A DNA stretch of 48,178 nt from a virus (taxonomy: Duplodnaviria; Heunggongvirae; Uroviricota; Caudoviricetes). Below are positions 1 to 48,178 of the stretch, piece after piece; position 1 is the stretch's first letter, and each line of letters opens with the position of its first letter. Below the pieces are notes generated by a model. The model saw only the letters and a list, made by a program, of their open reading frames with translations, made no database searches and was not told the origin of the DNA. Position numbers and translations under genes: made by a program. The stretch covers positions 64,001 through 112,178 of IMG/VR virus record IMGVR_UViG_3300031853_000008. One strand, given 5' to 3'.

Positions 1-1086
1 GTTGCAATTCCGAGGGAATACACCCATACTGCCTAGATTATTGAACGCAAGAATGGTAAGACTAAAGTTTCCGCATAGCTTTGCATTAATAAAATGTCTT
101 ATGATGCAAAAAATAAAATGCTGAATATTGACGATGTTTAGGTTCTTGGTGGGACCTGTCTTGGAGTCAACCCAAAGAACGGGAAAGAAGTCAAGGAAGG
201 AATGGAAGGTGCTGTTCTTCAGCTTGAAGACTTCAGTGTAGAAAATAATTCTATCAAATTTAATAAAGATGATAAGGGAATTGATCTTGCCCTTAATCAT
301 AAATAGTCAGTACCAACTGACCCTAACACTAACGGAAAGGAGGATAAAGGACTGATGGATGGTAAGGATAATAACAAGCCGGAAACTCCTGTTAGTGGAA
401 TCAGCTTTCAGGTAAACGGCAAGACTTTTGAACTTTCTCTGAGTGATATTCAGGGGGCGATTTCAAGGCTTGTGAATAATACATATTCAGAAGCAGACAA
501 TACCTGGTACTGGTGCAGCGTATACCCGGAAAGCAAGATTGTTGTCATGCAGGATTGGGATGGCACTGCGTACAGACAAAATTATGAGGTAGAGAATGAC
601 AACTACTCTCTCGTCGGCGATAGAGTTGCGGTTCACGCAATCTACGTAACCGATGAAGAGGAACAGGCTCTTAACGACGCAAAGAAGAATTTCGAGGAGA
701 CAAAGAAGAGCTTTGATGAGGCTACTGCGAACCTTGAGGCCGCTAATGCTGAACTTGAGTCGGTAAAGAATGAACTTAATGAGAAGTCTGAGAAACTCAG
801 CAAGTATGAAGCCGAGCCTGAAAAGATGAAGATCCTCAATTCCGAGGATTATTCAAATGTTGCAGATACTGAAGAGTTTTCTGCTCTTAAGAAACAGGAG
901 GAGCATTTCGACCTTTCTGTTGATGAAGTTAAGAATAAAGCTGATGAGATTCTGCTGAATTATGCAAAGTCTCATAAGAATTTTGCTTCTGAGGAGAAGG
1001 CTGGACATGTTATGCGTAAGCCGCTTCCGACCAATGCCAAACAGGGAGAAGGTCGTTACGGTTCACTGTTTTCAGATAATAAATAA
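1..1086 (+). CDS. Prohead protease-scaffold fusion, 5' partial, TAG read-through
   Basis: Frame +1 is open from base 1 to TAA 1084-1086 except for TAG at 34, 76, 139 and 304. The N-part (IIERKNGKTKVSAXLCINKMSYD...GGTCLG...EGMEGA) resembles prohead proteases of large Bacillota siphoviruses. The C-part is an acidic coiled coil. It lies upstream of the decoration and capsid genes. Confidence 0.8.
355..1086 (+). CDS. Probable nested in-frame scaffold protein (243 aa) from an internal start
   Basis: AAGGAGG at about 338-344 precedes ATG 355 inside the longer ORF. There is no TAG in 355-1086, and the product is coiled-coil rich. Confidence 0.55.
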   Translation: MDGKDNNKPETPVSGISFQVNGKTFELSLSDIQGAISRLVNNTYSEADNTWYWCSVYPESKIVVMQDWDGTAYRQNYEVENDNYSLVGDRVAVHAIYVTDEEEQALNDAKKNFEETKKSFDEATANLEAANAELESVKNELNEKSEKLSKYEAEPEKMKILNSEDYSNVADTEEFSALKKQEEHFDLSVDEVKNKADEILLNYAKSHKNFASEEKAGHVMRKPLPTNAKQGEGRYGSLFSDNK

Positions 1087-1114
1087 TAAATATTTTAGAA
1101 AGGAGAATTGAGTA

Positions 1115-1594
1115 ATGGCTTACAAGATGAATATTGATAAGCATGCGTATAGCTTCCCGACCAAGATTGCTGCGTCCGCAGGAAGCCCGCATATTTACAA
1201 CATCACTCTGACCACTGATACTGATAATGGTGCTTTTGTTGGTCGTGGTGATTGGAATGGATTTGACAATTATAAGGAAGCTGCCGCTCCGACTGCGTTT
1301 AAGGGAATTATCCGTGCACAGGCGGCTGATGGGAACTATTATGTCGAGGTTACTGCTGTTGATCCGGCAAAGGAGACCCTGTATCTGTACAACTCTCCTA
1401 TCCTTCCGTACACTACCCCAGCTGACCTTGCAGACCTGAAGAACTTCTACAATGCCGCTGGCGATGTTGTTAAGGGATATGCTCTTATCATCGGAGATAT
1501 TGTTGAGGAGTCCGCTGAAGGTTTTGATGGCACCCCGGAAGTTGGCAAGACTGTCACCATTAAGGGTAAGAAGCTTGCTGTAGCTACGGCTTAA
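1115..1594 (+). CDS. Head decoration / capsid auxiliary protein (159 aa)
   Basis: GAAAGGAG RBS, TAG-free, highly biased codons, positioned between scaffold and major capsid genes. Confidence 0.7.
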   Translation: MAYKMNIDKHAYSFPTKIAASAGSPHIYNITLTTDTDNGAFVGRGDWNGFDNYKEAAAPTAFKGIIRAQAADGNYYVEVTAVDPAKETLYLYNSPILPYTTPADLADLKNFYNAAGDVVKGYALIIGDIVEESAEGFDGTPEVGKTVTIKGKKLAVATA

Positions 1595-1620
1595 TCTTAA
1601 AAGGAAGGAGGTAAAGAACA

Positions 1621-2742
1621 ATGAGACTGCTTACATTTTCTAATCATGTAAATGACGTTTTTGCTGAAGCAAAGACTAACTATGACGGAATTAAGAATCT
1701 GATGTTTGATCTTGCTCTTGGCAACGAGATTTATGATGCATAGTCGAAGAGAATTGTTTCCAAGGCTGAAGCCGAGGAAAAGCTTCGTGCTGTAACAAGA
1801 AAGATCTTCGGGCTTGGAGAGAATCCGTCTCACAGAGATATTAAGAGAGCTATCCGTGATCATTCTCGTGAGTATTTTGACGTTATTGAAGAGACCGTTG
1901 ATATGGTTATCGAAACTGGTTTCCAGAACAACGAGTTCTTCAATACCCTTGTTGACCGCCGGAATATCGTGGCTGGCGATGAGATCCAGTTCAATGTCGC
2001 ACAGCATGACAATATCCTGTCTATTGCAGAAGTTGGAAATTCTCATCATGATTTCATGCTTCAGAGACTTGGCGGACATAAGGAATTCACTATCGGCACC
2101 CGTAAGTATGGTGCTGCTGTCGGAATCGACCTGAATATGTATCTGCTTGGTCGTGAGGATTTTGCAAAGCTTGTTAATGCAATTGCCACTGCTTTCCAGT
2201 ATAAGATTCAGAACGAGACTTATGCCGCTATGCTGTCTGCTGCTTCAAAGCTTCCTGTACAGGATGGATTCGTTGGAACTGGTACTCTTGGCACCGCTAC
2301 CAAGGATAAGTTCGATGAAATCATCGAGAATGTTTCTATCGCTAACGGTTCTGCTGTTATCGTTGGAACGAAGACTGCTCTTAAGAAGCTGAATGCTCTG
2401 TCTGATGTTGATTGGCGCGATGACCAGCTCAAGGGCGATGTTTCTCATTCTGGACGTATGGGCGATTATGAGGGAACTCTTCTGATGGAGATTCCGCAGA
2501 GATTTGCTCTTAATGACGTTACTAAGAAGCTTGTTGATTCCACCAAGCTGTGGATTCTTCCGGCTAACCAGTCTGATAAGTTTATCAAGATGGTTGATCA
2601 GGGTGAAACCGAGATTGACGAAATCACTGAGAAGGGTGAAGCCGCAGGACGTATCGATGATATCGGTAAGTATGAGGTTCAGAGATCCTTCGGTATCGGT
2701 GTTGTTCTTGGCCGTTACTTTGGTCAGTGGACTATTGCGTAA
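1621..2742 (+). CDS. Major capsid protein (373 aa)
   Basis: AAGGAGG RBS and ATG 1621. A single in-frame TAG (1741-1743) joins it to track ORF 1903..2742. HK97-like size, position and composition; ends TAA. Confidence 0.9.
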
Positions 2743-2760
2743 TTGTAAAGGAGAATAATC

Positions 2761-3324
2761 ATGTCAACAACTGCTAGAAAGACCCCAACAAGAAAACCAA
2801 CCCCGAAGGTTACTGAGACACACAAAGTTGAGAAGAAAACAGAGCCTGTTGCTCCCGTACAGAAGAAGGTGTTTGATCAGGCTGATGGAATCAAATGTCG
2901 GTCTATCACGCAGGGATCGCTCTATATGGAAGGTGAAAAGACGAAGATGCTTTATTCCTGGACGAATTATGGGGATGAGACATAGGTAGAATACCGTGAT
3001 CTTGTTTCAGCCGTCCGTGTGAAGTCTCCGTTCGTCTTTGGCCCGATGTTCTTGATTGAGGACGAAGATTTTATCAATGAATTCCAAGTCGTCAAGAAGT
3101 TCTATGATGATAATTTTACCATTACTGAACTTGATAGGATTCTATCTATGCCTGTGAATGAGATGATTGATACGATTAAAGGACTCCCAAAAGGAGCTTT
3201 TGAATCGATGAAGACTATCGCTGCCACGGCTGTAAGTGATGGAAGACTCGACAGTGTTAAGAAAATTAACGCTCTTGACGAACTTTTTGGCACTGATATG
3301 GCTCTGCTTGCACAGGGTGAGTAA
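2761..3324 (+). CDS. Conserved head-region protein (187 aa)
   Basis: Track ORFs 2761..2985 and 3019..3324 share a frame and are joined by TAG 2983-2985 (GDETXVEYRDL); ends TAA. Confidence 0.8.
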
Positions 3325-3341
3325 TAAAAAGGAGGCAATAA

Positions 3342-3811: not shown

Positions 3812-4966
3812 ATGACCCTTTCTGATTACAGAAGCCTGTTTAATGCAGGAGATTCTATGGGACGTGTGCTGAAGAAAAATGCGGATATGATTATCAAATA
3901 GACATGGGACAGAGATATTGATTCTCAGATTGCATATCTATATGACGATTCTCATGATAAGAGTGACGAACGTCATAAACTGGATGATCTCCATTCTTCT
4001 CAAGATGAGAATAAGATTCCAGTAAAGATAAAATTCATCCGGCATGGATCTCAATCATACGAAAAGGACCCTGTGACTTATTGGCTTCAACTCCAGCCTG
4101 GTTATGACATGGATGTTCCATATTATGATGAAGTTTTTGGGAAGCGTTATAAAACGCTTTATCCAATCGGGCTTTATTGTGATGTAATGGATGAACGTGG
4201 CAGATATAACCGATGGTTAGTCGCCGATAAGGCGAATTATGACCAGAATCAGTTCCCGACATTTGAACTTCTCAGATGTGATTATCTCTTTCAGTGGGTT
4301 GATCATGATAAAAGGTATGAAATGCCTGGAGCGATGAGAAGCCAGAATTCATACAATAATGGATTGAATGCAGGAACTATTATATAGACTGGTAATGACA
4401 TGCAGAAATTCTGTGTGCCACTAAATGATGTGACTGAGACTTTGTCATATAATCACCGCATTATCATTGATGCGTGGCTTCATACAGATGTTGCTGTTCC
4501 TCGTGTCTGGAAAGTATCAAAATTGAATCGTGTTATGCCAAACGGGATCGCAAGAATTATGCTTACTCAGGATTTGTTCAACCCGCATTCGGATGTCATT
4601 GAACGTGACGAAGATGGGAATGTTACTGGTATGTGGGCGGATGCAATTGATGCCCATATTCCTGTAGCGGAAGAAATGATTTAGGGAGTTTTAACTGCTA
4701 GTGGAAAAAACAACTAGATAAAAATCGGCGGGTCATACAAGACAATTAAGGCTGAGTTCCCGAATGGTGATGTTCCTGATTCATGGGAATATACGATTGA
4801 CGGATAGGATGCTACTGCTCTCCTGTCTTTCTCTGATACAAATAATTCGAACTCTGTAAGAGTAAAATTCATGGGTGACGACACATATATTGGCAAGACT
4901 ATCTTGGTCAAATGCAATTCAAACGGTAAGACCGCTTCAATAAAACTTCTGATTCAGGCATTATAA
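3812..4966 (+). CDS. Putative head-closure / head-tail joining protein with C-terminal Ig-like part (384 aa)
   Basis: One frame from ATG 3812 to TAA 4964-4966 with 5 TAGs, covering track ORFs 4073..4387 and 4400..4684. Function inferred from synteny. Confidence 0.65.
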
Positions 4967-4982: not shown

Positions 4983-5549
4983 ATGCAGTTAACATAGGAA
5001 CAGAAAAAAGAACTTCTCGCTCTCAAGCATGTGCCTGACAGTGACGATATAAGATTTAAGGAGCAGATTAAGAAGAAATTGATTAAGGATGATATTCTTA
5101 TCTATCTTCTTAATAATAAGGAATTATAGGATTCTGAAGCATAGGCAAGCGACTATATCGGGGTCAATATCTTTCCTTATTATATGATTCCACCGGATCA
5201 GAGTAAGGTGGAAAATTTTGTATGTTTTGAGACAAGGTTTACAGAAATACCTCAGGTAAATACGACATTGAAATATGCCCAGATTATGTTCTTTGTCATA
5301 TCTAACGAGCAAACCATTATCGAAGAAACTACTGGTGTTCCCCGCCATGACCTACTGGCTGCGAGAATCACTCAAGATTTCAACTGGACAAACTATTTCG
5401 GGACGCAAGTACATCTTGTAAGGAACGAACCTTCAACGGTGGATAAAAAATATGCTCAAAGACTTTTAGTTTTTGAGGGGAAAATGCCAAACTCTCTTGC
5501 GAAGACGGTAAATGGCGTTACTAGAGTTGTAAATAATACTGGTGAATGA
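4983..5549 (+). CDS. Putative tail completion / terminator protein (188 aa)
   Basis: ATG 4983 with three TAGs is in frame with track ORF 5184..5549; ends TGA. Function inferred from synteny. Confidence 0.6.
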
Positions 5550-5550
5550 T

Positions 5551-6324
5551 ATGCCAAAATTCGACCGTCTTAAAATGTATTTTGGATATCCTTTTAAGGT
5601 AAATGACAAAGTTACCGTCTATGAGCCAAAAATAGGGGATATTTTATAGCTTGGAGAATAGGATTTTTATAATATGTTGTATATCTTTATAGGTAATCCG
5701 ACAACGTATAGATTGGCTTTATGGAAAGCGAATATTGATTGGAATAAAATAAGTGATTACGAATTATTTCTTATGCTTTATAAAACAATCGATCATTAGT
5801 CTTCCAAACTGCTTTTTGGGGATTTAGATTTTTCCAAGCTATAGGCTTATTGGGTCAATGAACAATCGCAAGATTAGGAAGGGAATCCAGTTGAAAAGAA
5901 AGTCGTTACTCTTTACGACAAGGATAATGACATTGAAGTGTCCGAAAAGGATTATAAATTAATGTCTTAGTATATTAAAACTATGTTTAATATTTTTCCT
6001 AAAGTGGAAAAGGCTAGAGGCCGCGCCACAAAAGAGTCAATTATCTGGGAAGATTAGGAAAATCTTAAAAAACATAAAAATGATACCAATTCTTCAACTC
6101 TTCTTCCATTGATTTCATCATGTATCAATCATCCGGGTTTTAAATATAAACTGGAATAGCTTAAGTAGGTAGGGATAGTCCAGTTTATGGACTCTGTTCA
6201 GAGATTGCAAGTTTATGAAACTTCCACTGCTTTGTTAAAGGGTAGTTATTCTGGATTTATTGATACATCTAAGATTAATAAAGATGAGTTTAATTTTATG
6301 AGGGATTTAGACTCTAAAAAATGA
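5551..6324 (+). CDS. Conserved virion morphogenesis protein (257 aa), invisible in the standard code
   Basis: Runs from ATG 5551 to TGA 6322-6324 with 9 TAGs and no TAA/TGA. C-terminus HPGFKYKLEXLKXVGIVQFMDSVQRLQVYETSTALLKGSYSGF matches a family I recall upstream of tail tube genes. Confidence 0.8.
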
Positions 6325-7265: not shown

Positions 7266-8442
7266 ATGGCACGTGATAAACAGAGTCTTGGGGATTGGGC
7301 AAAATAGAATGAAAGACAGGATATACTTGATATGTGGGACTATAACAAGAATCCAGTCACTCCGTTTGAGGTTGGCAAGAATGACCGAACAAAAATTTTA
7401 TTTCCATTGCAACAATCCAGAACATGATAGTTTTGAGAGGTCTCCTGCTGTAATCGTAAGTCCTAGATCCGCGCATATTACATGCCCACAGTGTTATCCG
7501 CATGGAAGGACTTATATTGATTTAACAGGGGGAAACATTTGGAGATCTTACGGTTATCAAGGAAGATACGAATAATAAATCATCGAATAGTTGTGGCAAG
7601 ATGAAATGGATTTGTAAATGCTCGTGTGGGAATATAATTTCTACGGACGCTTATCGTTTACTTAAAGGGGGACAGACCCATTGTAGCAATGGAGTTCACA
7701 AAATTGGGAAAGACAATGGCAATTGGCGCGGAGGTATTAGTGATAGAAACTGGTCTCCAGATATTGGTAGCGATATTGCTGGGCAATATGCAAGAGCAAA
7801 CGGAGTAAGTCTTGGAGAATGGTTGGAGAATTAACTGTTATCAAGTTAGACGAAGAAAGAAACAAAAATCTCCCAGAAACAAATCATCAAACGTATTGGA
7901 TTTGTAAATGCTCGTGCGGTAGGGAAATTTCTGCATATGCTGTGGCTCTTAAAGACGGTAGGCAGAAGTCTTGTGGAGATGGTGTGCATATGCTAGGGGA
8001 ATTATCCCCGAACTGGCAAGGTGGGAAGACCCCAGAAAACATTCGTTTGCGGGGGACAAAACAATATCGTGATTGGCGTAAAAAAGTCTATGAGAAGGAT
8101 TGGTTTACTTGCCAATGTTGCGGACGGAATAAAGGAATCATCAAGAACGCTCATCACATTTATAATTTTTCTTCCAATCCATAGCTGAGATTTGACGAGA
8201 AAAATGGAATTACATTATGCGAGGATTGCCACTACTCTTCTAAAATTGGATCATTCCATAATCTGTACGGGACAGTGAATAATACACCCGAACAGTTAGA
8301 AGAATATATTAATAATCGCAGAAACAAATTGGGTATTAATATTCCGTTTTCTATGGAAACTTATCAAAATGGCGATATATTAAAACCTGGCATGATAAAT
8401 TACGATGACCCAAATGACAATTATGTTGATTTTACTGAATGA
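7266..8442 (+). pseudogene. Free-standing HNH homing endonuclease with Zn-ribbon and W-x-CxCxCG repeats, three frameshifts
   Basis: MARDKQSLGDWAKXNERQDILDMWDYNKN shifts frame at about 7378, about 7530 (G5 run) and about 7818. The C-terminal HNH domain CQCCG...[28 protein letters not shown] is intact and ends TGA 8440-8442. Confidence 0.8.
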
Positions 8443-9395: not shown

Positions 9396-9636
9396 AAAAC
9401 AGTTAAGAAGATATGTTATTGCTTACATTGGGTAGGACGGACAGGCGAGATACCTGGGTCGCAAAAAGCAACTGTGGTTTATCACGCCGGACATTACACA
9501 AGCAGCAAAAACAAGAAACAGAGCGTTGGCGCAGGATCTACTCTCCTATTACAGGCAAGAAGTCACAAAAGATATCGAACTTGCGGTGATCCCGCTTGAA
9601 ATCACATATGAATTAATTAAGGAGGTGGAAGTATGA
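9379..9636 (+). CDS. Hypothetical protein (85 aa)
   Basis: GAGG RBS, ATG 9379, one TAG, TGA overlapping the next ATG (ATGA coupling). Confidence 0.6.
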
Positions 9637-10109
9637 ATAGAATTTTAAGTCTTGACACTTCCACGACTGCTACGGGGTATGCCCTACATGAGGGCGAAAA
9701 GTATATTCAGAGTGGGGTTATCAAAGAAGAAGGGAAAATGAATGAGCGTGTTTACTACATGGTAAAAGATATCTATGGAAAGATTAAACTCTTCTGCCCT
9801 GATGTTATTGTGGTATAGGATACTGTTGTACCGAGAAATGCTATGACCCAGCGGATGCTTTCCATGCTTCTTGGGGCGGTCTATGGTTACTGTACTGAGC
9901 ATGGGATTAAATTTGTTTCTTTAAGGCCTTCTGTTTGGCGTAAATATTCTGCGTCTGGGCAGAAACCGCGGCATAGATAGGAATTAAAAGAATGGTCAAA
10001 ATAGATTTTTCGTAAAACATTCGACAGAGAACCGATTGATGATAATGAAGCCGACGCTTATTTATTAGGAAGAGCATACATAAAAATGGTTAAGGAGCAA
10101 AGACTATGA
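9633..10109 (+). CDS. ruvC: RuvC-like Holliday junction resolvase (158 aa)
   Basis: ILSLDTSTTATGYA (first catalytic Asp), PDVIVVXDT (second catalytic position is TAG 9816-9818) and DDNEADAYLLG (C-terminal acidic pair). Three TAGs; ends TGA. Confidence 0.85.
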
Positions 10110-11238: not shown

Positions 11239-14200
11239 ATGGCGAACGAAAATGGACATATAAATGCGGGCAAGACAGGTAATTCATTTAGCGATGCGGC
11301 AAATGCTGTTTTGGCGGAAATTCAAAATGCTGCGAGTCAATTGAACCAACAGACTACAGTTAAATTATAGGGGCTTGAACAACTTAAAGACTTCTTTAAT
11401 AAAGGATTTGCAAAACCAATCAATGCAAAAGTGAAGCCAGATTCGGAATATTTCAGAAAAGGAATGCGCCAAGCAATACAAGCGTCTGATACTGAGTTGG
11501 CAAAAATGGTTGATAACGCCTAGAAAAAAATTTTGGCGTTGGGGAAGTAGACTGACAAACAGGCGCAGAATGAAATAAAAGCCCAAATAAATCAGCAGCT
11601 TGGTTAGATATAGGCTTTAGGTGAAGCAAACTTTAAACTTAGGGACAAATATAAAGTCAAAACTCCCGGGGATAAAAGAGTATGGTTCTACGGAAAAGAT
11701 AACTAGGGTGGTCTTATTGACAGCTATATTGAAAGAGGTTTCAATCCGTCTTATGTAGATTCATTTACTGGGAAAAGGCTCAGTAAAGAAGAACTTACAC
11801 AAAAATATATAGATAGGTCATAGGGAACATTAACTCGTGAAAATATTGTTGCAATTGCGAAGTCGATTCCTAATGACCCGGAGAAAAAAGACAGAAGAAG
11901 ATATCCTAGGTTTATGGAAAATGGAGTTGAAAAGGTATATGACCTTACAACTTAGTATGACAAAGTATTCGAAAAACTGATAGATAAGACAAAAAAGATG
12001 ACAAACCCTGTTTATATAGGCGATAATAAATCGGGGCAAGTTGTCGATAGTGCTTTTGGTACTGGGCGATTAGCAACTAATGATCTTTATGCCTACGAAG
12101 GTGGCCAATAGGGAGATTATCGCAGTATCTCAATTATTGATTTAGATTCTAAAAAGATTCCCACACTTGATGTAAGTTCAATTTCTGACAGTTTTTTAGG
12201 ATAGTTTACCCCTGTTTTCAATAAAGCGGTATAGAAAGCCGCATCCGCTAATGGGGGCTTAAAAACAAAAGATCTCCCGCCCGAACTTGACAAATGGATC
12301 AAGACTTTCAAGTTAAGCGATGCACAAATGACGGCGTTAGTTAACAATATCGCTTTACATCCAGTTGACGGGGAACTTCCTATCAATAGCTTTTATCGGA
12401 AACTGAATATCGGAGCGATAAGTTCTGCTAATAGCATTACTTCTGGGAATACCGCATTTGGAGTGGATCAGCCTGAGGGTGGCGTGATGATAATGCCTGG
12501 GGCAGATACTTCAAAGCTTACAAGGATAGAAGTTTCCCCCGAATTAGCCAAGGTAGCTAATGGGATGCTTCTTAGTACAATTGCTTCGAATAAGGTATAT
12601 AGAAGTAAAACAAAGTCTGGAAATATCTTCTAGGACGATGAGTTTATAGAAAACCAGTAGGCTCTACGAGAATAGCAACAGACCGAAGGAAGACTTACGG
12701 TCGATAATACAAAAGAACTTAGAAAACAATTAAATGAAATAAGGAATAAAAAAGATGCTGATTTTCCATAGAAACCTGAACTTGAGCCTGTCGATCTAGA
12801 CACGGGAAGAACAAGCAGAAAACAAAAATAGAGGTTTTTAGCGTTAAACAGTAAAATTCTTGATTCCGCTGCTACCAATCTTACTTTATCAGAAGCACAA
12901 ATAAAGAGTGACAGATAGCTTAGTGATTCATTAAAAAGACAATAGGATAGAAATCAAAAAGATCTTTAGAGGCAACAAAAAAAAGTGGCTACTCCGCCGA
13001 AAAACAAAGAAAGAAAACTTACAAAAGAAGAACAGCGTCAAAAAAGTGCGTAGGAGTTGGAGTGGCTTCAAGCATATGAGTCATGGTATAACGACGGAAT
13101 AAGAGAAGAGGAATTATCAAAAGAACATCCAGATACTTTTCCCCCTATAACAGCATAGGAGTGGAGACAAAAACATTTAGGTGAACGCCCTGGTAGATAT
13201 GTAAACGGGAAGCTTCAAAATTTGGATTGGCTTAAATAGAATGGATACGCTGTTCCTACGGACGAAGCAATTTAGGCATATCATTCATAGCTTTAGTCAA
13301 AAAGAAAGGATTTACAAAAAGTTCAAGACGAAGAGTTTGAAAAAGCAGAAAGATCTTTGCAAGATAAAGCAGATAAAGCAGCTGATACTGCGAGAAAAAG
13401 GGCTGAAAAAGCTGGTATTTCAGGGATTGGGCAAGATGAAGCTGCTGAGAAAGCCAAAAGAGATTATATCTAGAAACATGGATATGATAAAGATATGTAT
13501 GATGAGTTTCTTTACGCCCGTGGAAGATATTGGACGAAAGATGACTTAAAAGCTTATTCAAGAAGGCATCCATAGGTTGGGGATGCAGATGACTCATGGT
13601 GGGCAGTTCAGAATTATACAATTTCCGATGATTTGGTGGGACCCGCTCTTCCAAACGGAGCAAAAATCGGTACAAAAGCTAATGCAAATAAATATTTATC
13701 GGCCACTCAATTGATTCAGGCTATTCAAAAAAGCAGTGAGTTCCAGGATTCAATTGCTAAAGGTATAGCTGGGATTAATGTCGAATGGAGTTAGAAACAG
13801 CAAGAGGCTTTTACACAAGCTAGTACCGTCGCCCAAAGTAAAGGTATTGAAGCAGCGCAAGCTTCATATAAACAGTCTATATAGGACAACGAAGAATCAA
13901 CCGCTGCTTTGAACAAGGCGATATAGGCATTCAAAACTGGATTCTAGCAAGCTACACCGACTTAGTACGATGCCACCACAAAAAGTTGGCTAACGAAGGA
14001 ATAGATTGAAAAGGGATTAAGCCCCACTCCTCCGTAGCCACAGCAGCCTTAGAACGAGAATCCACCCGCTCCTGCTCCTGCTCCACAACCCGCAGCTCCT
14101 CAACAGTAGGAGAAGCCAATTGACACGACAAAGCAATTAAGGCATGGGGATTTTCAAAGATTTCTGAAACAGAACGAATAGATTCAGTCCCTTATTGAAG

Positions 14201-26200: not shown

Positions 26201-29121
26201 AATGTGTACAGTCGGCGGAGGAACTTCGTGGTTCTCTGCATGACCTTGCGCAAAAAGAACTTAGTAATATTACTGAACATTATCAGACGTGGCTCGATTT
26301 ACAGAAACAGATTAGTGATAATGCCGCAGGATTTGTCACATACGCTAATGCTAGTGGCGTAACCGATAATTCTAACTTCATCAAAGGGCAATATGATGCT
26401 CAGATTAGTGCAGGAAATAACCAACTTGGAATTCTGACCCGTGAAATGGCGGAATATAGTGCAAAGATTAGAGAATTCCAGAGGCAATCTGATCTTGGTA
26501 TGCCAGTTAATTCAGATGCGTGGGGAACAGCGATTAAGTAGCTTCAATCTATGAACAATCAGTATGTCGAACTCTTGAGCACTGTCCAGGATTTGAGGCG
26601 TACAAAGTTTGAACTTGATTATAAACCGATTGATTATGCTATTAATAGACTCACCTCTCTGATTGACAAATCAAAAGAAATCATTAAATTGAGACAACAG
26701 CTTGGTAAAAATAAGATTGCCCCAAGCCCGTGGGATGTATAGCCGTAGGAGTCAGATTATATTGAAGTCATTAAGCAGTCGAACGATTTGATGGCTGAAT
26801 ACCAGAATACAATCAATAAAGCGAATCAAGAAATCAAAGATATGGGAGATTCATTCGATTCCGACAAATATGAAGCCGAAGTTCAGAAGATCCGCGAAGC
26901 GGAAAAGAACATTATCTCTCTTACTGGCAGCATCATGGATCTGAAGAAGGAAATCTTCGGAGTTAGATGGAAAGGGTTTAACGACCTTGAGACTAAGATG
27001 CAAGAGGTTAATAGCGATCTTGAGCATCTGTCAGGACTGATTGATGACAATGAAATGTATATTGGCAAGTGGGGCACTGCTCTCTCCGATTATGGTTATG
27101 CAAAACTTGCTCTTATCGGGAAAGAACTGGCAAATGACGAAGACCAGATTGCAAACTTCCGTTAGGCAATTAAGAAGCTTGGGGAGCAAAAAGCAAGCGG
27201 GTTTATCAATGAAGAAGTCTACCAGTAGAACTATAAGAGTTACAAGAAAACACTGCAAGACTACGTTAAGAACGCAAAATCCGCACAGGAACAACTCGCT
27301 AAAATCTACACGCAACTTATGTAGAACGAAAACGAGCTTCTGCAAGACAATATTAGCAAACGAAAAGAAGCTCTTCAGGCAAAGAAAAATTACTATGAAT
27401 GGGATAATACCATTCGCCAAAAGAATAAAGATATTCTTAGTTTGCAAGCACAAATAAATGCTCTTAATGGCATTTCTTCCATGAGCGGACAAGCAGAACG
27501 TGCTCGACTTCAGTCTCAGTTGAGTGACGCTCAAAAGGATATGACAGACACAAGGTTCGGTCATTCGATTGATATGCAGTCGGCTGGCTATGACCGTATG
27601 GCAGAAAACGCTAATACCGCACTTAAGGATATTGAGACAGCGATTGAGAGAAGTTCTGCACTTCAGCAACAGATTGTCAATGATATGCTTGACAAGATGT
27701 CGCAGAATGCAAGTACTGCATTTGCTGGAATTCAAGATATTATTCTGAACACGCATACCGCGGTTGAAGAAGAAACTGCTAACCAGATTGCAGAGTTCCA
27801 GAACGAGCGTTCTGCAATGGATGCGGTTGCAAGTGGAGTTCAGATTCCTGTATAGGTAAAGGCTTCTGATAATGGGGAAGCGTTGACCATCAGAACCCTT
27901 ACAGAACATTTCCATGAACTTGTGAAAGTATTCTCAGATAGGGAAGACCTCGTTACGTTCCCACAGAAGACTACGTCAAGTGTCAAGATCAACATCGATA
28001 CGAATACACAAGATGCGATTAAAGCATTTGATTCACTCACGGAAAGTATTAAGAAGATTGGTGATCAAGCACAAGAGTCTCTTAACAAGCTGAAAGAATT
28101 GAACACGTCACAAGCGAAACCTTCAACATAGGCTACTGGAGTTAAGACAAATGATGTCAATACATTAACCCTAGGGAATCAACAGACTGTCAAAGATGTT
28201 TCAAGCGGTAAAAATACTTCTATCGCATAGGCTACGGGTGAAGCAAACAAAAAGGCAACAGAACAGAAAGTGGCGCAGCAAGCCGCAGCCGCAGCAGCTA
28301 GAGCAAATGTATCTAAACCAGCTCCTGCTCCCGCACCAAAGCCAGCTCCAAAACCAGCACCAAAGCCAGCTCCAAAACCAGCTCCGCTCACCACTCAAGA
28401 TGTATTGTTGGATTATCTTAACAGGATTAATTCAATGCTTGGAAATAAAAAACTACGTTGGACGAGGATTAAATTACAGCAAGAAGCTATGAAATACGCT
28501 ATCGATCATCTTGGGAGACCACATGCTGAAGGTAAAAAACTCACTAAGAAGTAGAGAAGAGAAGCAGGCAGCCTAAAAAAATTACTAATTACTAAATATG
28601 GAAAAACAGGGGGTAATGGGCTTTATGCGTGGTTAGGACGGCTTGGGCAACGCGAAGTAGCAAATCCTAGTAAGATTACTTGGTAGGAAGCGGAGAAAAT
28701 TGCTGACAGAATGAAATCCCTTGGGTTAAAACGTGGGACAAAAAATTATCGTGGTAATCAAGTCGGTTGGATTGATGAACAAGGTGCGGGATCTGAAATG
28801 ATTATCCGTAAGTCTGATAATGCAATTCTTACCAGACTTCAAGCAAACGATGCGGTTGTTCCAGCAAACCTGACCGATAATCTCTGGAAATGGGGAGCGA
28901 TCTCACCTGACAAGTTTATTTCCAAGACAAACAATGAAATGAAACCACATAATCTGCAACACATTGACAATAATATCAACGTTACTTATGGCAGCTTGCT
29001 CACTGTTAATGGCAATGTTGATAAGGACGCTTTGCCGGGACTCTAGTAGATACTTAAGAAAAGCTATGAGTACACGACAAAGTAGTTAAAACGAGAAGCT
29101 AGAAAGACTGGTTTTCGTTAA
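11239..29121 (+). CDS. Giant tail tape measure protein (5,960 aa)
   Basis: Frame +1 has no TAA/TGA for 17,883 nt (scanned line by line) and about 130 TAGs by manual count. The TMP core starts near 17170 (KDLDSALTXMRKVSDE...STADWMRLGES...LITAGN). C-terminal motifs include FDWVEVRL, SKRKEAL and GSEMIIRK...VVP. Confidence 0.9.
28315..28386 (+). repeat. Coding tandem repeat (PAPK)n in the tape measure
   Basis: Degenerate 12-nt units CCAGC(T/A)CCAAA(A/G) encoding KPAPAPAPKPAPKPAPKPAPKPAP. Confidence 0.9.
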
Positions 29122-35555: not shown

Positions 35556-38500
35556 ATGGCAAATAAAACAATCATTGGAGTTGGGGAATATACAATAAAA
35601 GAGATATATGACGGCAAATCAGGAGTTGGAGTATAGAATATAAGATACTACTATCAGATTTCTAATGATGATAAAAACCCGCCGACTTATTGGACGGATG
35701 TTTTGCTTGAGACAGCATCACAGGTTATCCCGACCAAAGAGAACCCTTATTTGTGGGCGTATCAGGAAATTGCTTATACTGATGGGACTATCACAAAAAC
35801 AGATCCTCAAATTGTTGGTGTGCGCGGGGAAAATGGAACAAGCGTAACAGTATCGGCTATTAAATATCAAGCGGGAGTTTCTGCTACGGATCATCCTACT
35901 GGGACATGGTCTGCCACTCCTGTAGCCGTTCCCGAAGGTCAATACCTCTGGACTTGGACACATTATTCAGACGGCAAAGATGCCTATTCTGTGGCGCGCC
36001 AAGGGAAGAACGGAAATGATGGGCGTGGAATAAAAACGATACAAGACTACTATCTCGCTTCTCCAAAAACTAGTGGAATTACCACCTCTACAGATGGTTG
36101 GGACACAGATCCAGAAAAACAAAAAGTTTCAGAAGATAAAAAATATTTGTGGCACTACACAATGACCACTTATTCTGATGGATCACATAGCGAATCAACC
36201 CCTACTGTTATTGGTGTGTTTGGGCAGGATGGACAGCCTGGTAAGTCAATAGATCAGATTACTGTACAATATGCGGTTAGTACGTCTAGCACTGATGCCC
36301 CGGCTGATTCTGAATTCAGGGATACTCCCCCAACAACTGACGAGCTTAACGGGGAAAACCAATGGTATCGGTACGTTTATCATTACAGTGATAAAACGAC
36401 AAGCTATTCTGCAAAAATGTGTGATGTGGAATTTAACAATCTGAAATTCTTAGTTGATCAAAATACACAAGCAATAGAAGCTAGGGTAACAACTGATAAA
36501 TTCAACACTGTAGTTGGGGAAGACGGTTAGAGAATCACGAAGATGGATTCGGATCTGACACAGGCAAAGGCGGATATCTCAGGCCTGCAGACTACGGTAT
36601 CGAGTCAGAAGACCGAGATTAATAAGAAGGCGGATGGTTCGACGGTCTCTCAGATGCAGACAGATATTTCCAATCTTCAGCAGACCGATAAGGATATCAC
36701 TGCTTCTGTCGCAAGTACAAACAGTAAAATCGATAGTATGAAAGTCGGCGGGCGAAATCTTGCGGCTATCTCAACGTCTATCGATGGACATCGCCTTGTA
36801 GAAGGTTACACTTACGATGGCTATTCAGACCCAGGGTTCAGGCTCAGTGCGAAGATTGCATGTGTAGAAGGTGATGAGTTCACCGTAAGCACCAACGCAG
36901 CTGGTACTCTCTCGTTTGCATGGTGCGACTCTTCTGACTCTGTGTTCAGTAGACCAACTGGGCATTATAACGCTGCAGTTGGCTATAAATAGACATTCAC
37001 AGCGCCGTCGAAGGCATCGTATTGTGCTCTGTCTTGGGAAAAGTCTACACTTGATGGTCATATAAAGCTTGAGCGGGGGAACGTGGCTACAGATTATAGC
37101 CCTGCCCCTGAAGATTATTATGATTATACAGACACTCAGATGGCTAAATTCCAAATAGAAGCAGATAAAATCGATGCAATGGTCAGCAACGTGAACTCTA
37201 AGTCTGAGATCACCCTTACTCCGAATGCCATCAGTGCGATATCTGATAATATAGAAATTAAGACCACAGACGGAAAGACACTTGCGATTAAAAATGGCAA
37301 GATTCAGGCGAACGCTATCACAATTGGAGATGTCAGTGAATTAAGCGAAGACTTGACATCATTAGATGCGAAGGCTAGCGATGCCGCAAAAACCGCAACG
37401 GAGTATATCACGGATATCGATGGCGGGGGGATAAGTGTACATGACGCAAATAACAAAGACAACGCTGTACATATTACGAGCACAGATATGACTGTAATAC
37501 AAGGTGGGAAAAAGATTGCAAAATTTGGTTCTTCTGTCGAACTAGGAACGTCCGCTAATGCTTTTGGAAAATCCTCCTTCTCTTTGGGCGAAGCATATGC
37601 TTTTGGAGATAGAAGCCATTCTGAAGGGCGTAATACCTTTGCATTTGGTGATTATTCTACAAATTTCGCTACTGGGGAAAAAGGAGACATAGGGGGGGCG
37701 ATTCCTGAAGCTGGGATAATAGGAATAAAACAAAAAATAGCTTATGCTCCTTCATTAAATGTGGGACCCCAAGTATATAGAGTTGATTACAGTGTTGATT
37801 CAAGCATACAATTTTCCCCCTCTCTTAATTTCCAAGATATCTGCTTATATGATGTAGTATATTTATCAAATAATAGCCAAGGATGTTATATGTATGTAGT
37901 TACTATTGACTACAATGAAAAAACTCTATCTTGTTCTGGGAGAGAACTAGTAGATCATGCAACTAAATTACAAATTGCTTCATCTAGCGTGACTGTAGGA
38001 AGAGCTTCTTTTAATTCTGGGGAAAATAATAAAGTTATTGGAAGAAATTCATTTTCTGAAGGTGAAGAGAACTATATTAAAGGCAGCTACTCTCATGCAT
38101 AGGGCTATAGAGTCAGGATAAGCGGAGCTTACTCCCACGCATAGGGGGCTTTTGCACAGGCTAATAATATGTTTTCGCATGCCTAGGGGTTAATGGTATA
38201 TGCAAATGGAATGTACTCTCATTCAGAGGGTGGAACAGATGTTGTATTTGTTAAACTAACTGGAGATGCTCAATCCCAAGAATATACATATACGGTAAAT
38301 AATAATGATTTTATTACAAAGGGTTTATCGACTGCCCCGTTGGTAGGGATGGAATTACGCACCATCAACGGATAGTCAGCAATTGCGAGAATTATTTCGG
38401 TCGATCATAGCAACAATAAAATCACCTTAGACCAATCTATTTCATCTGATTCTATAAAAGATAAACAATATGTTCTCCGTAAGTTAGCGGGGGCGGACGG

Positions 38501-40019
38501 GGACTACGCTCACAGCTAGGGTCGTGATGCTTCAGCAAACGGCAACTACTCTCACGCCTAGGGGTATCACACATAGGCGAATGGGGAAGCTTCTAATGCT
38601 TCTGGATATAATGTGCGGGCATCATCTAAATTCCAGCATGCTTTTGGTTGTGCAAATATCGAAAATGATGACCACGTGTTTGTTGAATTGGTCGGCAACG
38701 GAAGCCCTATCCACCCAAATGTTCGCGAGATATCTAATTTACAGGTGACCACCCATGATTATCAATATTTAATCGTGAATTCTGATGACACTGTGATTCA
38801 AGATTTCCCTAAGAATTATACGGATGACATAGCGCGAAGCAAAGGCGATTGGGTAGAAAATCTCCCAGATGCTCAATCTGGAAAATGCGCAATAGAACGT
38901 GTTGAATGTATTTTACAGAATGGAAGTTCTGTTTATTACCCAGACACAAGAAAATATTTTCAGGAATCAAACGGATCCTGGGCTGTGCTCACGTCAACTG
39001 AAGACGTAGAAGGGAGTGGCTCTTCTCCTATATATGATTCTGGGTTAATGGATCCCATCAAAGTTAAATCTCACTATCAATAGTATTTATTAACAGATTA
39101 TTCTGTTGCTGCGCATGTTTATGCTCTTCCAGCTGATTACGAATAGGATAATCCCAACTGGGTTTCTTAGCAACCACCAGTTCAATAGGGGAAAATATTA
39201 GTTGAAAGAGAAACATATATCTATGATAATGGAACTTCTTCTCATATTGTCCATAATGATGAGTTTTGGGATGTAAATTCAGAAACGAACGAATGGACAT
39301 TAATGTTGGTTGCTGAAGAAAGTGATAGATCTTATAGTTCAGGGCTTGAGGACAATAATACTTCAACGGTAGAAACTCCTACTATCGGCAAAATATAGGC
39401 GGAGAATCTATCTGGGGCTGACCCAGAAGATCCTACTGGCTCGAAAACGATTGCTTATTCTAACGCAAGAACTCTTGACTGGAACGGTAATGAATGGCTT
39501 GCGGGAAAATTGACTGTAGGAAAGCCCCCAACCAATGATATGGATGTCACTACAAAAAGATATGTTGATACCGCGGAGGCACAGGCGCAGACGGCTATCA
39601 ATGCGTTAAACCAGAGTCTGAAAAACCAGATCGATGCGGCGAATGAAAAGATTGAAACAAATGCTTCTGCAATTGAAACAAATGCTTCTGCAATCTCAGA
39701 TAGCCAGACAGCGATTAATACGTTAAAAAAAGGTTTAACAGATACAAATACTAAGGTGGACGCATATTCCGGCGGACAGTATATGCGGTTTTTTCAGCTG
39801 CCTGCAAAGAGTTCTGTCACCATTGGATATAGATACAATAGTTTTGCCGTTGCAATCATTACAACTACAAGGGACCATTCAGCGGTTGTAGCCTTAACAA
39901 ATAGCCACGCCATTGTACTAGCAGGTAGTTTGCAAGGCATCTCCTTTTCGGCAGGCACCAACAGTTGTAAGATCACCAGTTCTCTTAACTGGGTATGCCC
40001 GATATATGTGATCGGCTAA
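35556..40019 (+). CDS. Long tail fibre / receptor-binding protein (1,487 aa)
   Basis: AAGGAG RBS and ATG 35556. TAGs join six track ORFs in one frame. Contains YLW..Y.DG repeats, a coiled coil, SHA(E/X)G repeats, SNARTLDWNGNEWLAG and a variable tip after 39739; ends TAA. Confidence 0.85.
39576..39646 (+). repeat. 71-bp perfect direct repeat, copy 1 (copy 2 at 41141-41211)
   Basis: GAGGCACAGG...GCGGCGAATGA is identical at both loci and in frame in both fibre genes (EAQAQTAINALNQSLKNQIDAANE). Confidence 0.95.
39651..39692 (+). repeat. Exact 21-nt tandem duplication (one heptad, IETNASA)
   Basis: ATTGAAACAAATGCTTCTGCA occurs twice in tandem. Confidence 0.9.
39722..39739 (+). other. Putative invertase crossover site 1
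   Basis: GTTAAAAAAAGGTTTAAC, an imperfect palindrome resembling hix/cix (AAACC-AA-GGTTT), read as LKKGLT in the fibre frame. Confidence 0.65.
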
Positions 40020-43899: not shown

Positions 43900-43993
43900 A
43901 TTTTGAAGGCATCCACGACATAGAAAAGCTTCATTCTATACGATGTCGGATTGCTTATGATTTTGACATTGCATAGAAATGGAGGTGATTAAA

Positions 43994-44542
43994 GTGGGAG
44001 ATTTTTAGACGTTTCTAAACATGAACCACAGGGAGGGAATCCTATACATGATTCTCTTGCTTGTTGTTTTGATTTTTCTGATAAAAGTTATAGACTATCT
44101 TATGCAGAGATTCGGAATTAAAACTGGTCAGCAAATTCATGAATAGCAACAAGACGCATAGATTAAAAAATTAAATTTATAGTTTGAAAAGATTGAAAAG
44201 AGTTAGTCTGAAGTCAAAGAACAAGAGGAAATAAATCATAATAAAACGTCAGAACAGATAAATCATATCAATGAGGCTGTTGGTTGCTTACAAAATTCGG
44301 TAGACGAAATGCGGGAAGCTGAACGAACTAAGACAAGAGCGTAGATGAAAGACCGCATTGGGCAAGCTTACCGCTATTATCATGCTAAAGGCGAAATTAA
44401 TAGTATGGAGAAAGAAGCTCTTTAGGGTCTGATAAAGTCTTATGAATAGGCTGGCGGTGGCAATAGTTTTGTGCACTCGAAAGTTTTAGTGTAGATGCAG
44501 GAATGGAAATTAGTTGATAACACTGGAGAGAATGATGTGTGA
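43994..44542 (+). CDS. Membrane-anchored coiled-coil lysis-module protein (182 aa)
   Basis: GGAGGTG RBS, GTG start, 9 TAGs, one N-terminal TM helix, RAXMKDRI...YRYYH...EALXGLI..YEXAGG.NSFVH motif, TGA 44540-44542. Confidence 0.7.
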
Positions 44543-44551: not shown

Positions 44552-46159
44552 ATGATTAAGATTAACAAAAATTTAATGAACAGAAATCATACGGCGCTTA
44601 AACGATAGAATAAAGACATTCAATGGATTGTGATCCATTATGTCGGGGCACTTGGTGACGCAAAGGCTAACACTGATTACTATAAGAGCAACGATATCCA
44701 AGCATCTGCTGATTTCTGGGTTGGATTTAAGGGCGACATCTGGCAAGGTAACGACTACAGAAATTATTATTCGTGGCACAGTGGCGGAGGGTATCAGTCA
44801 TCTTGGACGAAAGACGGCGGGGGGCAATACTATAGGGTTGCCCTTAACAAAAACTCTGTTGCTATCTAGATGTGTGTAAAAAAGAAAAATACTTCTAATC
44901 TTGTTGCAACCGATACAGATTGGTACTTCGAGGATGCCACCGTTGATGCGGCCGCTCAACTCACCGCATATTTAATGAAAGATCTTGACATTGATATTGA
45001 CCATGTTATTCGTCACTACGATGTCAACAGAAAAATCTGTCCAGCCCCCTATGTCCATAATTATCAAGCGTGGCTCGATTTCAAGAAAAAAGTAGCTTCG
45101 TATGCGGCAGTCACTAACGTCAAAACTTATTATTACAGGGTTCGTTCTTCTTGGCTCAATGCAAAATCTCAGCTTGGTGCGTACACCATCCTTGAAAACG
45201 CAAAAGTAAACTGCCCATATGGATATGCAGTTTACGATGAATCCGGCAAAGAACTTTATCGTAACTCTACTGCCCCATCTAAAATTTCTGAAGCTAAAGG
45301 AATCCCCGCGTCAAAGCAAGATTTCATTAGCAAAGTGGCAAAAATAGCTGTCGCCCTGTACCCAGAAACTAAGATCCTTCCATCTATTGCAATTGGACAA
45401 TGCTGTCTTGAAACTGGGTTTGGGCTTGGCAAGGATTCTACTATTCTCGTTAAGAATAACAACCTTCTTGGCATGAAAGCCGCCCTTATCAACAATACAT
45501 GGAAAGAACATAGCGTGTGGAACGGAGAGACTGTCACAAAGAGAACCCCCGAAGTATATAACGGAAAACTTACCTACATTAACGACACATTCCGAGTCTA
45601 TAAAGACTACTAGAATTGCATCAGAGATTATTAGATGTTCCTATCATGGGCCACGGATGGCAAAAACTACAAGTACAGGGAAATTATTGGCAAGACTGAC
45701 CCGGCATAGGTAATTCATATTATCCGTTCACATGGGTATGCGACAGATCCGTCATATGAAGAAAAAGTCTTGAGAGTCATCAAAGAAAACAATCTCACAC
45801 AATACGATAAGATGGTGAACAAAACGGTCACCGTCCCTGTAAAGCCGTTAAATGCCTCTAAAATCAATTCTAACAAAAACGCGAATAAGTTATCTGGCAA
45901 GCGGCAAAAACAAGAATCCGGGGCTTCTACGAAGTCAGGCACCGTTCTCTACAGGGTGCAGTGTGGTGTATTTGGGGTCGAAGAGAATTGCGACAATATG
46001 ATCAAACAGATGGCGCACCGTGGGTTCAAAGCAGTTAAAAAGAAAGTAGGCAAAATGTTTGTCGCACAGGCTGGAATTTACTCTGTTCGGTAGAATGCAG
46101 CCTATATGGAGCAAAGGCTTGAAAAAGCGGGGCTTCCACATTCGACCGAAATTATATGA
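44552..46159 (+). CDS. Endolysin: Amidase_2 + GH73 glucosaminidase + SPOR-like repeats (535 aa)
   Basis: IVIHYVG, NSVAIXMC, VIRHYD and KICP (Zn amidase); QCCLETG and GYATDPSY (GH73); YRVQCGVF and QAGIYS (SPOR). Six TAGs; ends TGA. Confidence 0.9.
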
Positions 46160-46178
46160 AGAAAGGACATTAAGAAAA

Positions 46179-47318
46179 ATGAACGTATATTTAGATAACG
46201 CTGCAACAACTCGCGTGTATCCAGAAGTTGCCAAGGCTGTTCAATCATGTTTCTAGGAAGAATACGGCAACCCCTCTTCTCTTTACGAACTGGGGCGTGG
46301 AGCAAGAGACAAAATCGATTATGCTAGACAACAGATTGCAAAATTTATCAACTGCTCCCCGGAAGAAATCTATTTTACTTCCTGTGGGACGGAATCAGAT
46401 AACTGGGTGCTGAAGGCTATGGCGGACTGCAACCCCAATGGGCATATCGTGACGACCATGATTGAGCATAAAGCAATCTTGAATACTTGCAAATGGCTTG
46501 AGGAACATGGTTATACTGTAACTTATCTCGAACCAGACGAACGAGGGATTATTACTCCAGATCAAGTAGATGACGCTATTAATGAAAATACTTTTCTTGT
46601 ATCTGTAATGGCGGCAAATAATGAGATTGGGGTGATTGAGCCGATAGAGGAAATCGGGAAAGTATGCTAGGAGCGGAGTGTTCCGTTCCATACTGATGCA
46701 GTTCAAGCTTATGGGCATATCCCGATTGACGTTAAGGCAATGCATCTTAATTATATGTCTGTATCCGGGCATAAGTTTCACGCTCCCAAGGGGACAGGTT
46801 TCCTTTATGCGAAAGGGGGAGTTATCCAAGAACCTTTCATGCATGGGGGCGGCCAGGAGAATGGGCTAAGAGCCGGGACGGAGAATGTGGTTGGGATTTA
46901 CGGCATGGGAGTCGCCACAAAGATTATTTCATGCAATTTTACAGAACAGATCGACAGAATGACTGCTCTACGTGACCGTATGATCAATCGTGTACTGGAT
47001 GAAATTCAAGATTGCGGGTTGAATGGCCCCTTTATCAGCAGAAACCCGAACAATGTTTCCCTGTGGTTTGATGGGATCAATGCAGATACCGCAGTCGCTG
47101 CCCTTGACACTTTTGGAATTCAATGCTCCTCTGGAAGTGCATGTAATACATCAAACTCCGCACCGTCTCATGTTCTTTCCGCTATAGGTCGTGGCGGCGT
47201 AGCGGACTGCACTCTCCGCTTCACTCTTTCAGACTTAACCACGAAAGAATAGATTGACTATGCCGTGGATGTTCTGAATATTGTCATCCCGCAGCTACGC
47301 AAGAGTAAAGTATCTTAA
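46179..47318 (+). CDS. iscS: Cysteine desulfurase (379 aa)
   Basis: YLDNAATT, GNPSS, TESDN, NNEIG, HTDAVQ, SGHK (PLP Lys), GGGQE, RAGTEN and SSGSAC (catalytic Cys). TAG at 46254, 46668 and 47250; ends TAA. Confidence 0.92.
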
Positions 47319-47442
47319 GGAGAAAATATGTCTGGCAACAAGGCATTTGTAATTTTAGGTAGGATTCGACGGAATATAAAACCGCCAAATTTTGAGAAAC
47401 TAATTAATAAAGATATTCTGATTTAGAAGGAGGGGATGCAAG

Positions 47443-47628
47443 ATGCTCAAAATCAGAGGAACGACAATCACGCTGACGAGAGGCGACTCCCTCAGACTCA
47501 AAGTGAATATACAGGATAAGGCGGGAAACCCCTATCAGCCATCATAGGGCGACACAATACTTTTTGCCCTTAAGAAAAATTATTCGGACGAAGATAACAT
47601 TACCAAACATTATGATAAAGTCAAATAA
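47443..47628 (+). pseudogene. Truncated small BppU-like protein (61 aa)
   Basis: GAAGGAGG RBS. MLKIRGTTITLTRGDSL...YQPSXGDTILFALKKNY is the N-half of a family I recall as about 110 aa; it stops abruptly in an AT-rich junction. Confidence 0.6.
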
Positions 47629-47681
47629 AAATAAAATATACTTGACTTTTTAACCCGGCCTGTCGGAAAGGTGGTGGTCAC

Positions 47682-48178
47682 ATGACTAAGAACATTGGAA
47701 CAGTGAGATCTATTCTTTTGCAGCAGCCTGAGAATGTGATCATCGAAGCAGCACGTTTTTACCAGAAATCAGGTAGACTGGTTTCGGAGCAAAGCTACTA
47801 TAAGACCCTAGAGAGGATGACAAAAGCCGGGGAACTGGTTCATTTGGCAAAGGGCATGTATTATCGTCCTAAAAAATCCCGCTTTGGCATGGTACCGATA
47901 AGCGAGAAAGAAATCGTCTCTCATTTTACAGGAATGAACAGGGGGCTGCTCGTTGGTTATCGTCTTTATGTGAACAAAGGACTCACTACATAGGTCAGTA
48001 AAAATGTGGAGGTCCTTTCCGTATTAGTCAGGGAACAGAAGAAAAATATCGGCAATGTCTCTGTTTCAAAAATCGAGATGGAACTGAACCCTGAAATAAA
48101 AAGCATGATCGAGGCTTTTGAGGTGCTTCAAAACTACGGCAGAATTCAGGATATGAACACTGGCGCTTTTGCCGATTA
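47682..48178 (+). CDS. DUF6088 / AbiEi-like antitoxin, 3' partial
   Basis: LERMTKAGELVHLAKGMYYRPKKSRFG (wHTH) and GYRLY..KGLTTXVS. The frame stays open past TAG 47991 to the window end. Confidence 0.7.

Follow-up and report, generated by a model that had tools for sequence, protein, structure and literature searches.

The DNA considered here (the window, a stretch of 48,178 nucleotides) spans positions 64001-112178 of one viral contig of 112,178 bp, IMG/VR record IMGVR_UViG_3300031853_000008, and is the late half (virion, tail, lysis) of an SPbeta-like siphophage from the cattle rumen. Comparison with standard-code relatives argues that in the late genes of this phage the codon TAG is most probably read mainly as glutamate (Glu, E), a reading to which we give a probability of roughly 0.85. 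Where the codes of phage and host differ, the reassignments described for phages are TAG to glutamine (Gln, Q) and TGA to Trp only (10.1101/2021.08.26.457843, PMC9523058, PMC10607447, PMC11210395), and the first of these sources states explicitly that there are only these two. An initial annotation made from the letters of the window had proposed both the Glu meaning and its novelty. No report of TAG as Glu in a phage was found in the open-access phage-recoding literature searched, and as far as that literature shows the conclusion that this is an undescribed viral genetic code is supported.

The contig is linear and, according to CheckV, about 66% complete. Its TerL and the YonF protein of Bacillus phage SPbeta (SPBc2) are 43% identical, there are further TerL matches in SPbeta-like phages of Staphylococcus, Mammaliicoccus, Lysinibacillus and Clostridioides, and from this likeness the phage is placed among the SPbeta-like siphophages; stretches of TerL, portal and tape measure align with several such phages, which shows relatedness and not genus membership. 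Bovine gut metagenome runs from about 10 studies contain the phage sequence, at least eight of these studies standing besides the possible source, and four of the runs are RNA (metatranscriptome).

Read with the standard code, the plus strand of the window falls into short fragments, which TAG as a sense codon joins into long frames, the longest having 5960 amino acids and 132 TAGs. Only TAG opens frames in this way: the total length of long open reading frames (ORFs) divided by the length of the window is 1.15 when TAG is opened and 0.82 when TAA is opened, and opening TGA instead of TAG also leaves less long-ORF length. In a gene call over the whole contig, the genes up to about 58 kb lie mostly on the minus strand and are almost free of TAG, and those from 58.9 kb on (terminase, portal, virion, tail, lysis) lie on the plus strand and are rich in it, at 16.2 TAGs per 1000 codons against 1.3 in the early genes. 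This is a two-code strategy, with the standard code in the early genes and TAG as a sense codon in the late ones, where 275 in-frame TAGs were counted. Of the late genes called, 23 finish with TAA and 13 with TGA; because TAG was sense to the caller, these counts do not show whether TAG also serves as a stop.

The meaning of TAG was sought with a column-likelihood test modelled on Codetta. Proteins were translated with X at TAG and compared by tblastn with 26 standard-code relatives that have no in-frame TAG there (6 known phage records, 17 IMG/VR loci reached through the terminase, and 3 complete genomes of 143-149 kb); for each amino acid the spectrum of residues found in relatives opposite the phage's own codons was taken, and the spectrum that best explains the residues opposite TAG was sought. 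Over 99 TAG columns with one vote per column Glu fits best, followed by Gln at -29.1, Asp at -39.0 and Lys at -44.3 nats, and when every cell is counted Gln is more than 300 nats worse than Glu. The genes of the window alone (60 columns) also favour Glu, with Gln at -7.2 nats. As a positive control, 99-column subsamples were drawn 200 times for each of GAG, GAA, CAG, CAA, AAG, GAT, TAT and TCT, and the right amino acid came out every time, with margins of 20-55 nats, by comparison with 29 for the assignment of TAG to E.

Other measures agree with the test. The initial annotation had named Q at these sites in close standard-code homologues among the observations that would refute its reading; in the relatives with 45-66% TerL identity E is found instead, in 46.5% of 600 cells opposite TAG, which resembles the GAA/GAG positions (46% E) and differs from the CAA/CAG positions (36% Q, 11% E). 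Among conserved columns (at least 90% conserved, at least eight relatives), those at TAG are E in seven cases, D in one and Q in one, those at GAA/GAG are E in 27 of 40 and never Q, and those at CAA/CAG are Q in 9 of 12 and never E; the spectrum of consensus residues at TAG columns does not differ significantly from that at GAA/GAG columns. Over 7882 aligned columns the phage has a Glu fraction of 0.061 against 0.074 in relatives, a deficit of 0.013 that is close to the TAG frequency of 0.012, and there is no depletion of Gln (0.039 versus 0.038). For the gene at 5542-6324, 150 mutually diverse representatives drawn from a library of 1.84 billion proteins have E as the commonest residue at seven of nine TAG columns, and E is the best fit, with Gln 309 nats worse per cell. 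Together with the homologues of the lysin and the individual sites in RuvC, amidase and TerL, these results bear out the proposal of Glu and not Gln.

All 20 coordinates cited with that proposal are what they were said to be, with flanking peptides as quoted: in-frame TAGs at 9816, 44867, 38100, 38142, 38184, 38517, 38559, 46091, 39186, 76, 17275, 8182, 44423, 47545 and 47991, and sister codons GAA at 37623, 38058 and 29564 and GAG at 38226 and 45983. RuvC X62 (TAG 9816), the Glu to which the initial annotation ascribed a catalytic role, is E in PDB entries 6lw3 and 7w8d and in three standard-code relatives. X106 of the amidase (TAG 44867), likewise claimed as a Glu site, is E in all 120 database homologues, which are 56-73% identical; these were used in place of a PDB search with the amidase domain alone, which was weak (E = 0.24). 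The lysin TAG columns X354, X361 and X386 likewise have E more often than any other residue in these homologues. TerL X279 is E in 26 of 26 relatives, including SPBc2 and phiCD211, down to 32% identity.

TAG 76, residue 168 of a gene whose product the initial annotation called a protease, is E in 13 of 13 standard-code relatives. The repeat [SA]H[AS]xG of the tail fibre has TAG at x in five copies and GAA or GAG in two, never CAA or CAG, and the GAA at 38058, counted earlier as a sister codon, lies in a variant SFSEG copy. At TAG 17275 in the tape measure gene, relatives show E, E, E, N, S, D and T. TAG 8182 in the HNH gene has E in the single relative that aligns, and at TAG 46091, in the SPOR domain, the lysin homologues have A (9), E (8) and S (6), a spread that is uninformative. 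Neither TAG 44423 nor TAG 47545 had an aligning homologue, and the same holds for the pairing of fibre and Dit at 39186/29564. These sites lie in the following genes of the window, given with the other annotated features:

1-1086, plus strand: 3' part of a late virion gene (contig 63575-65086, starting upstream of the window), with four TAGs inside the window, including 76.
5542-6324, plus strand: conserved virion protein of 260 amino acids, with nine in-frame TAGs.
7819-8442, plus strand: HNH endonuclease with TAG at 8182, from weak Pfam HNH and HNH_2 matches just under the curated cut-offs.
9633-10109, plus strand: RuvC-like Holliday junction resolvase, with TAGs at 9816, 9978 and 10002, from alignment with PDB 6lw3 and 7w8d.
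11239-29121, plus strand: giant tape measure protein of 5960 amino acids with 132 TAGs, open only with TAG as sense and aligning with SPbeta-like tape measures.
29231-30376, plus strand: distal tail protein (Dit) with six TAGs, from the Pfam DUF6558 N- and C-terminal domains and SPP1_Dit.
30379-34449, plus strand: large tail or baseplate protein of 1356 amino acids with 25 TAGs, a TAG-as-sense frame 38-41% identical to proteins of recoded sister phages.
35556-40019, plus strand: tail fibre with 15 TAGs and 14-amino-acid repeats ending in [SA]H[AS]xG, from reading of the repeats.
43979-44542, plus strand: small protein of 187 amino acids with nine TAGs, an open frame directly upstream of the lysin, whose sole Pfam match is a transmembrane domain far under the cut-off.
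44552-46159, plus strand: endolysin with Amidase_2, glucosaminidase and SPOR domains (Pfam) and six TAGs.
46179-47318, plus strand: class-V aminotransferase or cysteine desulfurase (IscS/NifS-like) with three TAGs, Pfam Aminotran_5 at an E-value of 1e-76.
47682-48176, plus strand: DUF6088 (AbiEi-like) gene with TAG 47991, cut by the end of the contig.

The tape measure is more than twice as long as YomI of SPbeta (5960 versus 2285 amino acids). SPBc2 and the SPbeta-like phages share with this phage homologues of TerL, portal and tape measure and a very large tape measure, and differ from it in using the standard code throughout. In two rumen strains, short stretches of the tape measure are swapped for longer inserts near 15444-15465 and 25326-25333. 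The small protein at 43979-44542, to which no homologue could be aligned, is perhaps a membrane protein or a holin, which is a guess. Directly after the lysin stands the IscS/NifS-like cysteine desulfurase gene, whose product matches cysteine desulfurases in the PDB at 1e-88 and has a homologue in three standard-code relatives at 31-34% identity; its TAG columns are variable (R, K/H, D/E). The truncated DUF6088 product was looked up on other contigs and nothing was on record. The named homologues of the lysin and of DUF6088 come from Lachnospiraceae, Peptostreptococcaceae and Catenibacterium.

The four nearest relatives by TerL (L011, L012, L013 and L027; 61-64% identity) are also TAG-recoded and have the same SPbeta-like late-gene module. 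Their TAGs, in contrast to those described above, fall on conserved Gln columns, with Q in 17-19 standard-code relatives (for example TerL 54, 106, 249, 261, 417, 513 and 558), and at these columns the phage studied here has ordinary Gln codons. Since the same procedure places the TAGs of the sisters on Q and those of this phage on E, it can tell the two meanings apart, and both of them occur within one clade. The tRNA(CUA) genes of three sisters (L011:5674-5762, L012:3878-3969 and L013:5948-6039) are 89-92 nt long; their variable arm is long, as in tRNAs for Ser, Leu or Tyr, their first pair is weak, and two of them have G73. A Gln suppressor of such class-II shape would itself be unusual. 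ARAGORN found no tRNA(CUA) on the record of the fourth sister (G003, loci L037-L044), which is complete at 160,883 bp with terminal repeats; it carries tRNA-Thr, tRNA-Gln(UUG), tRNA-Met and tRNA-Leu, and its in-frame TAGs lie on Gln columns. This phage and Gln-reading sisters have TAG at the same place twice: at TerL 156 (L004:4515-4517), where the column is E/D, and at residue 16 in the gene that spans contig 63575-65086, where it is Q. The overlap could be fortuitous, or could date from a time when the codon changed its meaning.

The recoded phages of code 15 (crAss-like, Lak, Garnet, Topaz, phAss-1) resemble this phage in having standard-code early genes, TAG-rich structural and lysis genes late, and their own tRNA(CUA), and the layout found here fits the model in 10.1101/2021.08.26.457843. 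They differ in that their TAG is Gln, and the tRNA described below is built like tRNA-Glu and does not have U1-A72.

Glutamate as a meaning of UAG belongs to two eukaryotic nuclear codes, NCBI tables 30 (peritrich ciliates) and 31 (Blastocrithidia), in which UAA is Glu as well. The phage shares with them the reading of UAG as Glu. It differs from them in two respects: first, UAA is not Glu here, 23 of the called late genes ending at TAA; second, the switch is imposed by a phage late in infection.

The tRNA with a CUA anticodon that the initial annotation expected outside the window is present. ARAGORN places it on the minus strand at contig c[26061..26133], among the early genes and about 37.9 kb upstream of the window, and the Rfam tRNA model RF00005 gives it 56.9 bits. 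The label tRNA-Pyl given by ARAGORN reflects the CTA anticodon only, and pyrrolysine was rejected. The suppressor has U11-A24, A37, U35, A46 and a 4-nt variable region (AGAC) without nucleotide 47, which count as identity elements in E. coli tRNA-Glu (PMC9976931). Its D-loop is as long as in the tRNA-Glu genes of a rumen metagenome-assembled genome (MAG) and of a related phage, and one base longer than in the two tRNA-Gln genes of that MAG. Bacterial GatCAB recognises U1-A72, and rejects tRNA-Glu for its G1-C72 pair and an extra D-loop base (PMC2811023); the suppressor, with C1-G72 as first pair and with the extra D-loop base, does not have the features of a GatCAB substrate. The MAG, the only bacterial genome found to contain a contig of a related phage, encodes GatB (595 bits), and a search of it for GlnRS gave none, the best match reaching 67 bits against a cut-off of 426.

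On these grounds a mechanism can be outlined, which we hold to be somewhat better than an even bet. The glutamyl-tRNA synthetase (GluRS) of the host would charge the suppressor, GatCAB would ignore the glutamylated product owing to C1-G72 and the extra D-loop base, and Glu would go in at TAG; a CUA tRNA would have no other way of acquiring Gln if the host lacked GlnRS. Domain searches over the 112-kb contig, about 66% complete, found no synthetase of GluRS or GlnRS type and no release factor. Overall identity of the suppressor to the tRNAs of the MAG was 66-70% for many isotypes and did not discriminate, and BLAST of the suppressor against 151 genomes of the order of a candidate host matched almost only the T-arm, which is common to tRNAs of several isotypes and thus says nothing on isotype. 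In IMG/VR the exact sequence of the anticodon arm matched 10 times, never in a tRNA, and a narrow metagenome pattern for the exact D-arm found nothing. Two further tRNA-like genes of the contig, one of 91 nt with a two-base 'anticodon' call (c[4248..4338]) and a weak tRNA-Ala(GGC) of 38 bits with mismatched stems (c[26651..26723]), lie near a DUF2828/DUF7788 protein.

A number of observations weigh against a pure Glu meaning and against this account of the suppressor. TAG 47991, which the initial annotation had itself set apart as a counterexample, is a real one, as it stands in DUF6088 at a residue where all 98 homologues, including one of 92% identity, have Gln. Similarly, 10 of 11 relatives have Q opposite a TAG upstream of the window, at residue 16 in the gene that spans contig 63575-65086. 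Columns with a Q consensus make up 9.1% for TAG against 5.1% for GAA/GAG (p = 0.16), the best-fitting mixture of Glu and Gln has a Glu share of 0.82 and gains 2.0 nats over pure Glu, and the two strain polymorphisms found at TAG codons are both TAG/CAG. As regards the tRNA, of the Glu identity elements of E. coli G1-C72, U2-A71, U13-G22, U34 and C36 are absent, their places being taken by C1-G72, G2-U71, G13/A22, C34 and A36; the rules of E. coli may not be those of the host. The anticodon loop, CCCUAAC, has an unusual C at position 33, where U is nearly universal, a feature common to only three of 41 related suppressors, and overall identity puts the suppressor no closer to tRNA-Glu than to other isotypes. 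Finally, the contig is only about 66% complete, so that a synthetase or a second suppressor could sit in the missing part.

The Gln sites could mean that decoding is ambiguous, with a Glu-charged suppressor that is partly amidated, or with a second suppressor, giving mostly Glu and a real minority of Gln. The TAGs on near-invariant Gln (47991 and residue 16), the mixture peak, the TAG/CAG pairs and the TAGs shared with the Gln-reading sisters at TerL 156 and residue 16 speak for it. On the other side, the gain of the mixture over pure Glu is just 2.0 nats and a 50:50 mixture fits worse than pure Glu. Moreover, the Q excess is not significant, and TAG columns have an equal excess of Ser and Tyr, which likewise lie one step from TAG, as mutation alone predicts; on this account the TAGs on Gln sites are read as recent point mutations; these few would be recent CAG-to-TAG transitions, tolerated as Gln-to-Glu missense changes. 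Strain polymorphism failed as a test of synonymy: of the 40 strain single-nucleotide polymorphisms listed in the tape measure gene 35 are nonsynonymous and 5 synonymous, and hence the TAG/CAG pairs need not be silent and decide nothing. In addition, the suppressor bears both features that make GatCAB reject a tRNA. We regard ambiguous decoding as unlikely, and reading as Glu remains preferred.

The other explanations are far less probable still. Code 15, in which TAG is Gln as in crAss-like, Lak and other recoded phages, has in its favour that it is the sole meaning reported for TAG recoding in phages (10.1101/2021.08.26.457843, PMC9523058), that the nearest recoded relatives use it, and that a few TAGs of this phage fall on Q columns; the 29 nats by which Gln is worse per column and the more than 300 per cell, the TAGs at the amidase Glu (120/120), the RuvC Glu and TerL Glu 279 (26/26), the undiminished Gln content and a suppressor without U1-A72 make it very improbable. 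About equally improbable is a residue that passes for Glu in alignments, for instance Asp, Lys or an acidic residue that is modified or non-standard. Asp and Lys are the next commonest residues at TAG columns, and comparative data are blind to a modified residue, but Asp and Lys are 39 and 44 nats worse per column, the invariant columns are E and not D, the suppressor has neither Asp or Lys features nor the shape of tRNA-Pyl, and no synthetase gene was found in the contig. Least probable of all, and refuted by the results above, is the view that nothing was reassigned, the TAGs being true stops of decayed genes, products of misassembly or points of occasional read-through. Its one argument is the role of TAG as a stop under standard decoding. 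The 275 in-frame TAGs are confined to essential late genes that otherwise align full-length with relatives, the residues opposite them are conserved and nonrandom, the same sequence recurs in the runs of the studies named above, and a cognate tRNA(CUA) is present.

Suppressors of this kind are not confined to one contig. A pattern for a Glu-shaped tRNA(CUA), defined by a GUC/GAC D-stem, a 4-nt variable region and the CUA anticodon, matched 3 stretches in IMG/VR and 44 in metagenomes, which give 41 distinct sequences (40 and the phage's own). Their free stems covary, with four to six pair types at most positions and more than 80% of cells paired everywhere; the first pair is G-C in 15, G-U in 13, C-G in 4 and U-A in 4, and two have the same acceptor-stem ends as the phage suppressor. 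Several of the contigs that carry them (loci L175-L218 and L159-L161) are 48-187 kb long. One unrelated phage of 117,928 bp (G156, loci L162-L167) contains 371 TAGs in frame, and its tRNA(CUA), at L160:576-647, is Glu-shaped with C1-G72 as first pair; the 85 aligned cells at its TAG columns favour no residue, seven RecJ columns being Q, K, E, E, D, K and Q/E, and a search for its relatives returned only G156 itself.

It is possible, at odds that we put a little short of even, that TAG as Glu is a widespread and overlooked phage code, arising in hosts with the indirect route to Gln-tRNA (a non-discriminating GluRS and GatCAB, without GlnRS). In such hosts a CUA suppressor would be glutamylated by default, its acceptance by GatCAB alone would set the final meaning, and one phage clade could flip between Glu and Gln, perhaps via an ambiguous stage. 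If this is true, pipelines that use table 15 mistranslate all phages in which TAG is Glu, catalytic residues included.

For the phage itself, tools that detect recoding assign table 15 and so would place Gln at the catalytic Glu of the lysin and of the resolvase and at an invariant Glu of the terminase, a reading that would distort homology searches and structure predictions. Stop codons seldom acquire a new meaning in nature; here the kind of system, late-gene recoding with a phage suppressor, is known, and the meaning of the codon is new. The suppressor would be a natural amber suppressor that inserts Glu, of use for engineering. A clade in which the same codon has different meanings offers a natural system for studying how codon meaning changes, and the case points to the Gln-tRNA pathway of the host as the decider of which residue a suppressor inserts, which is testable.

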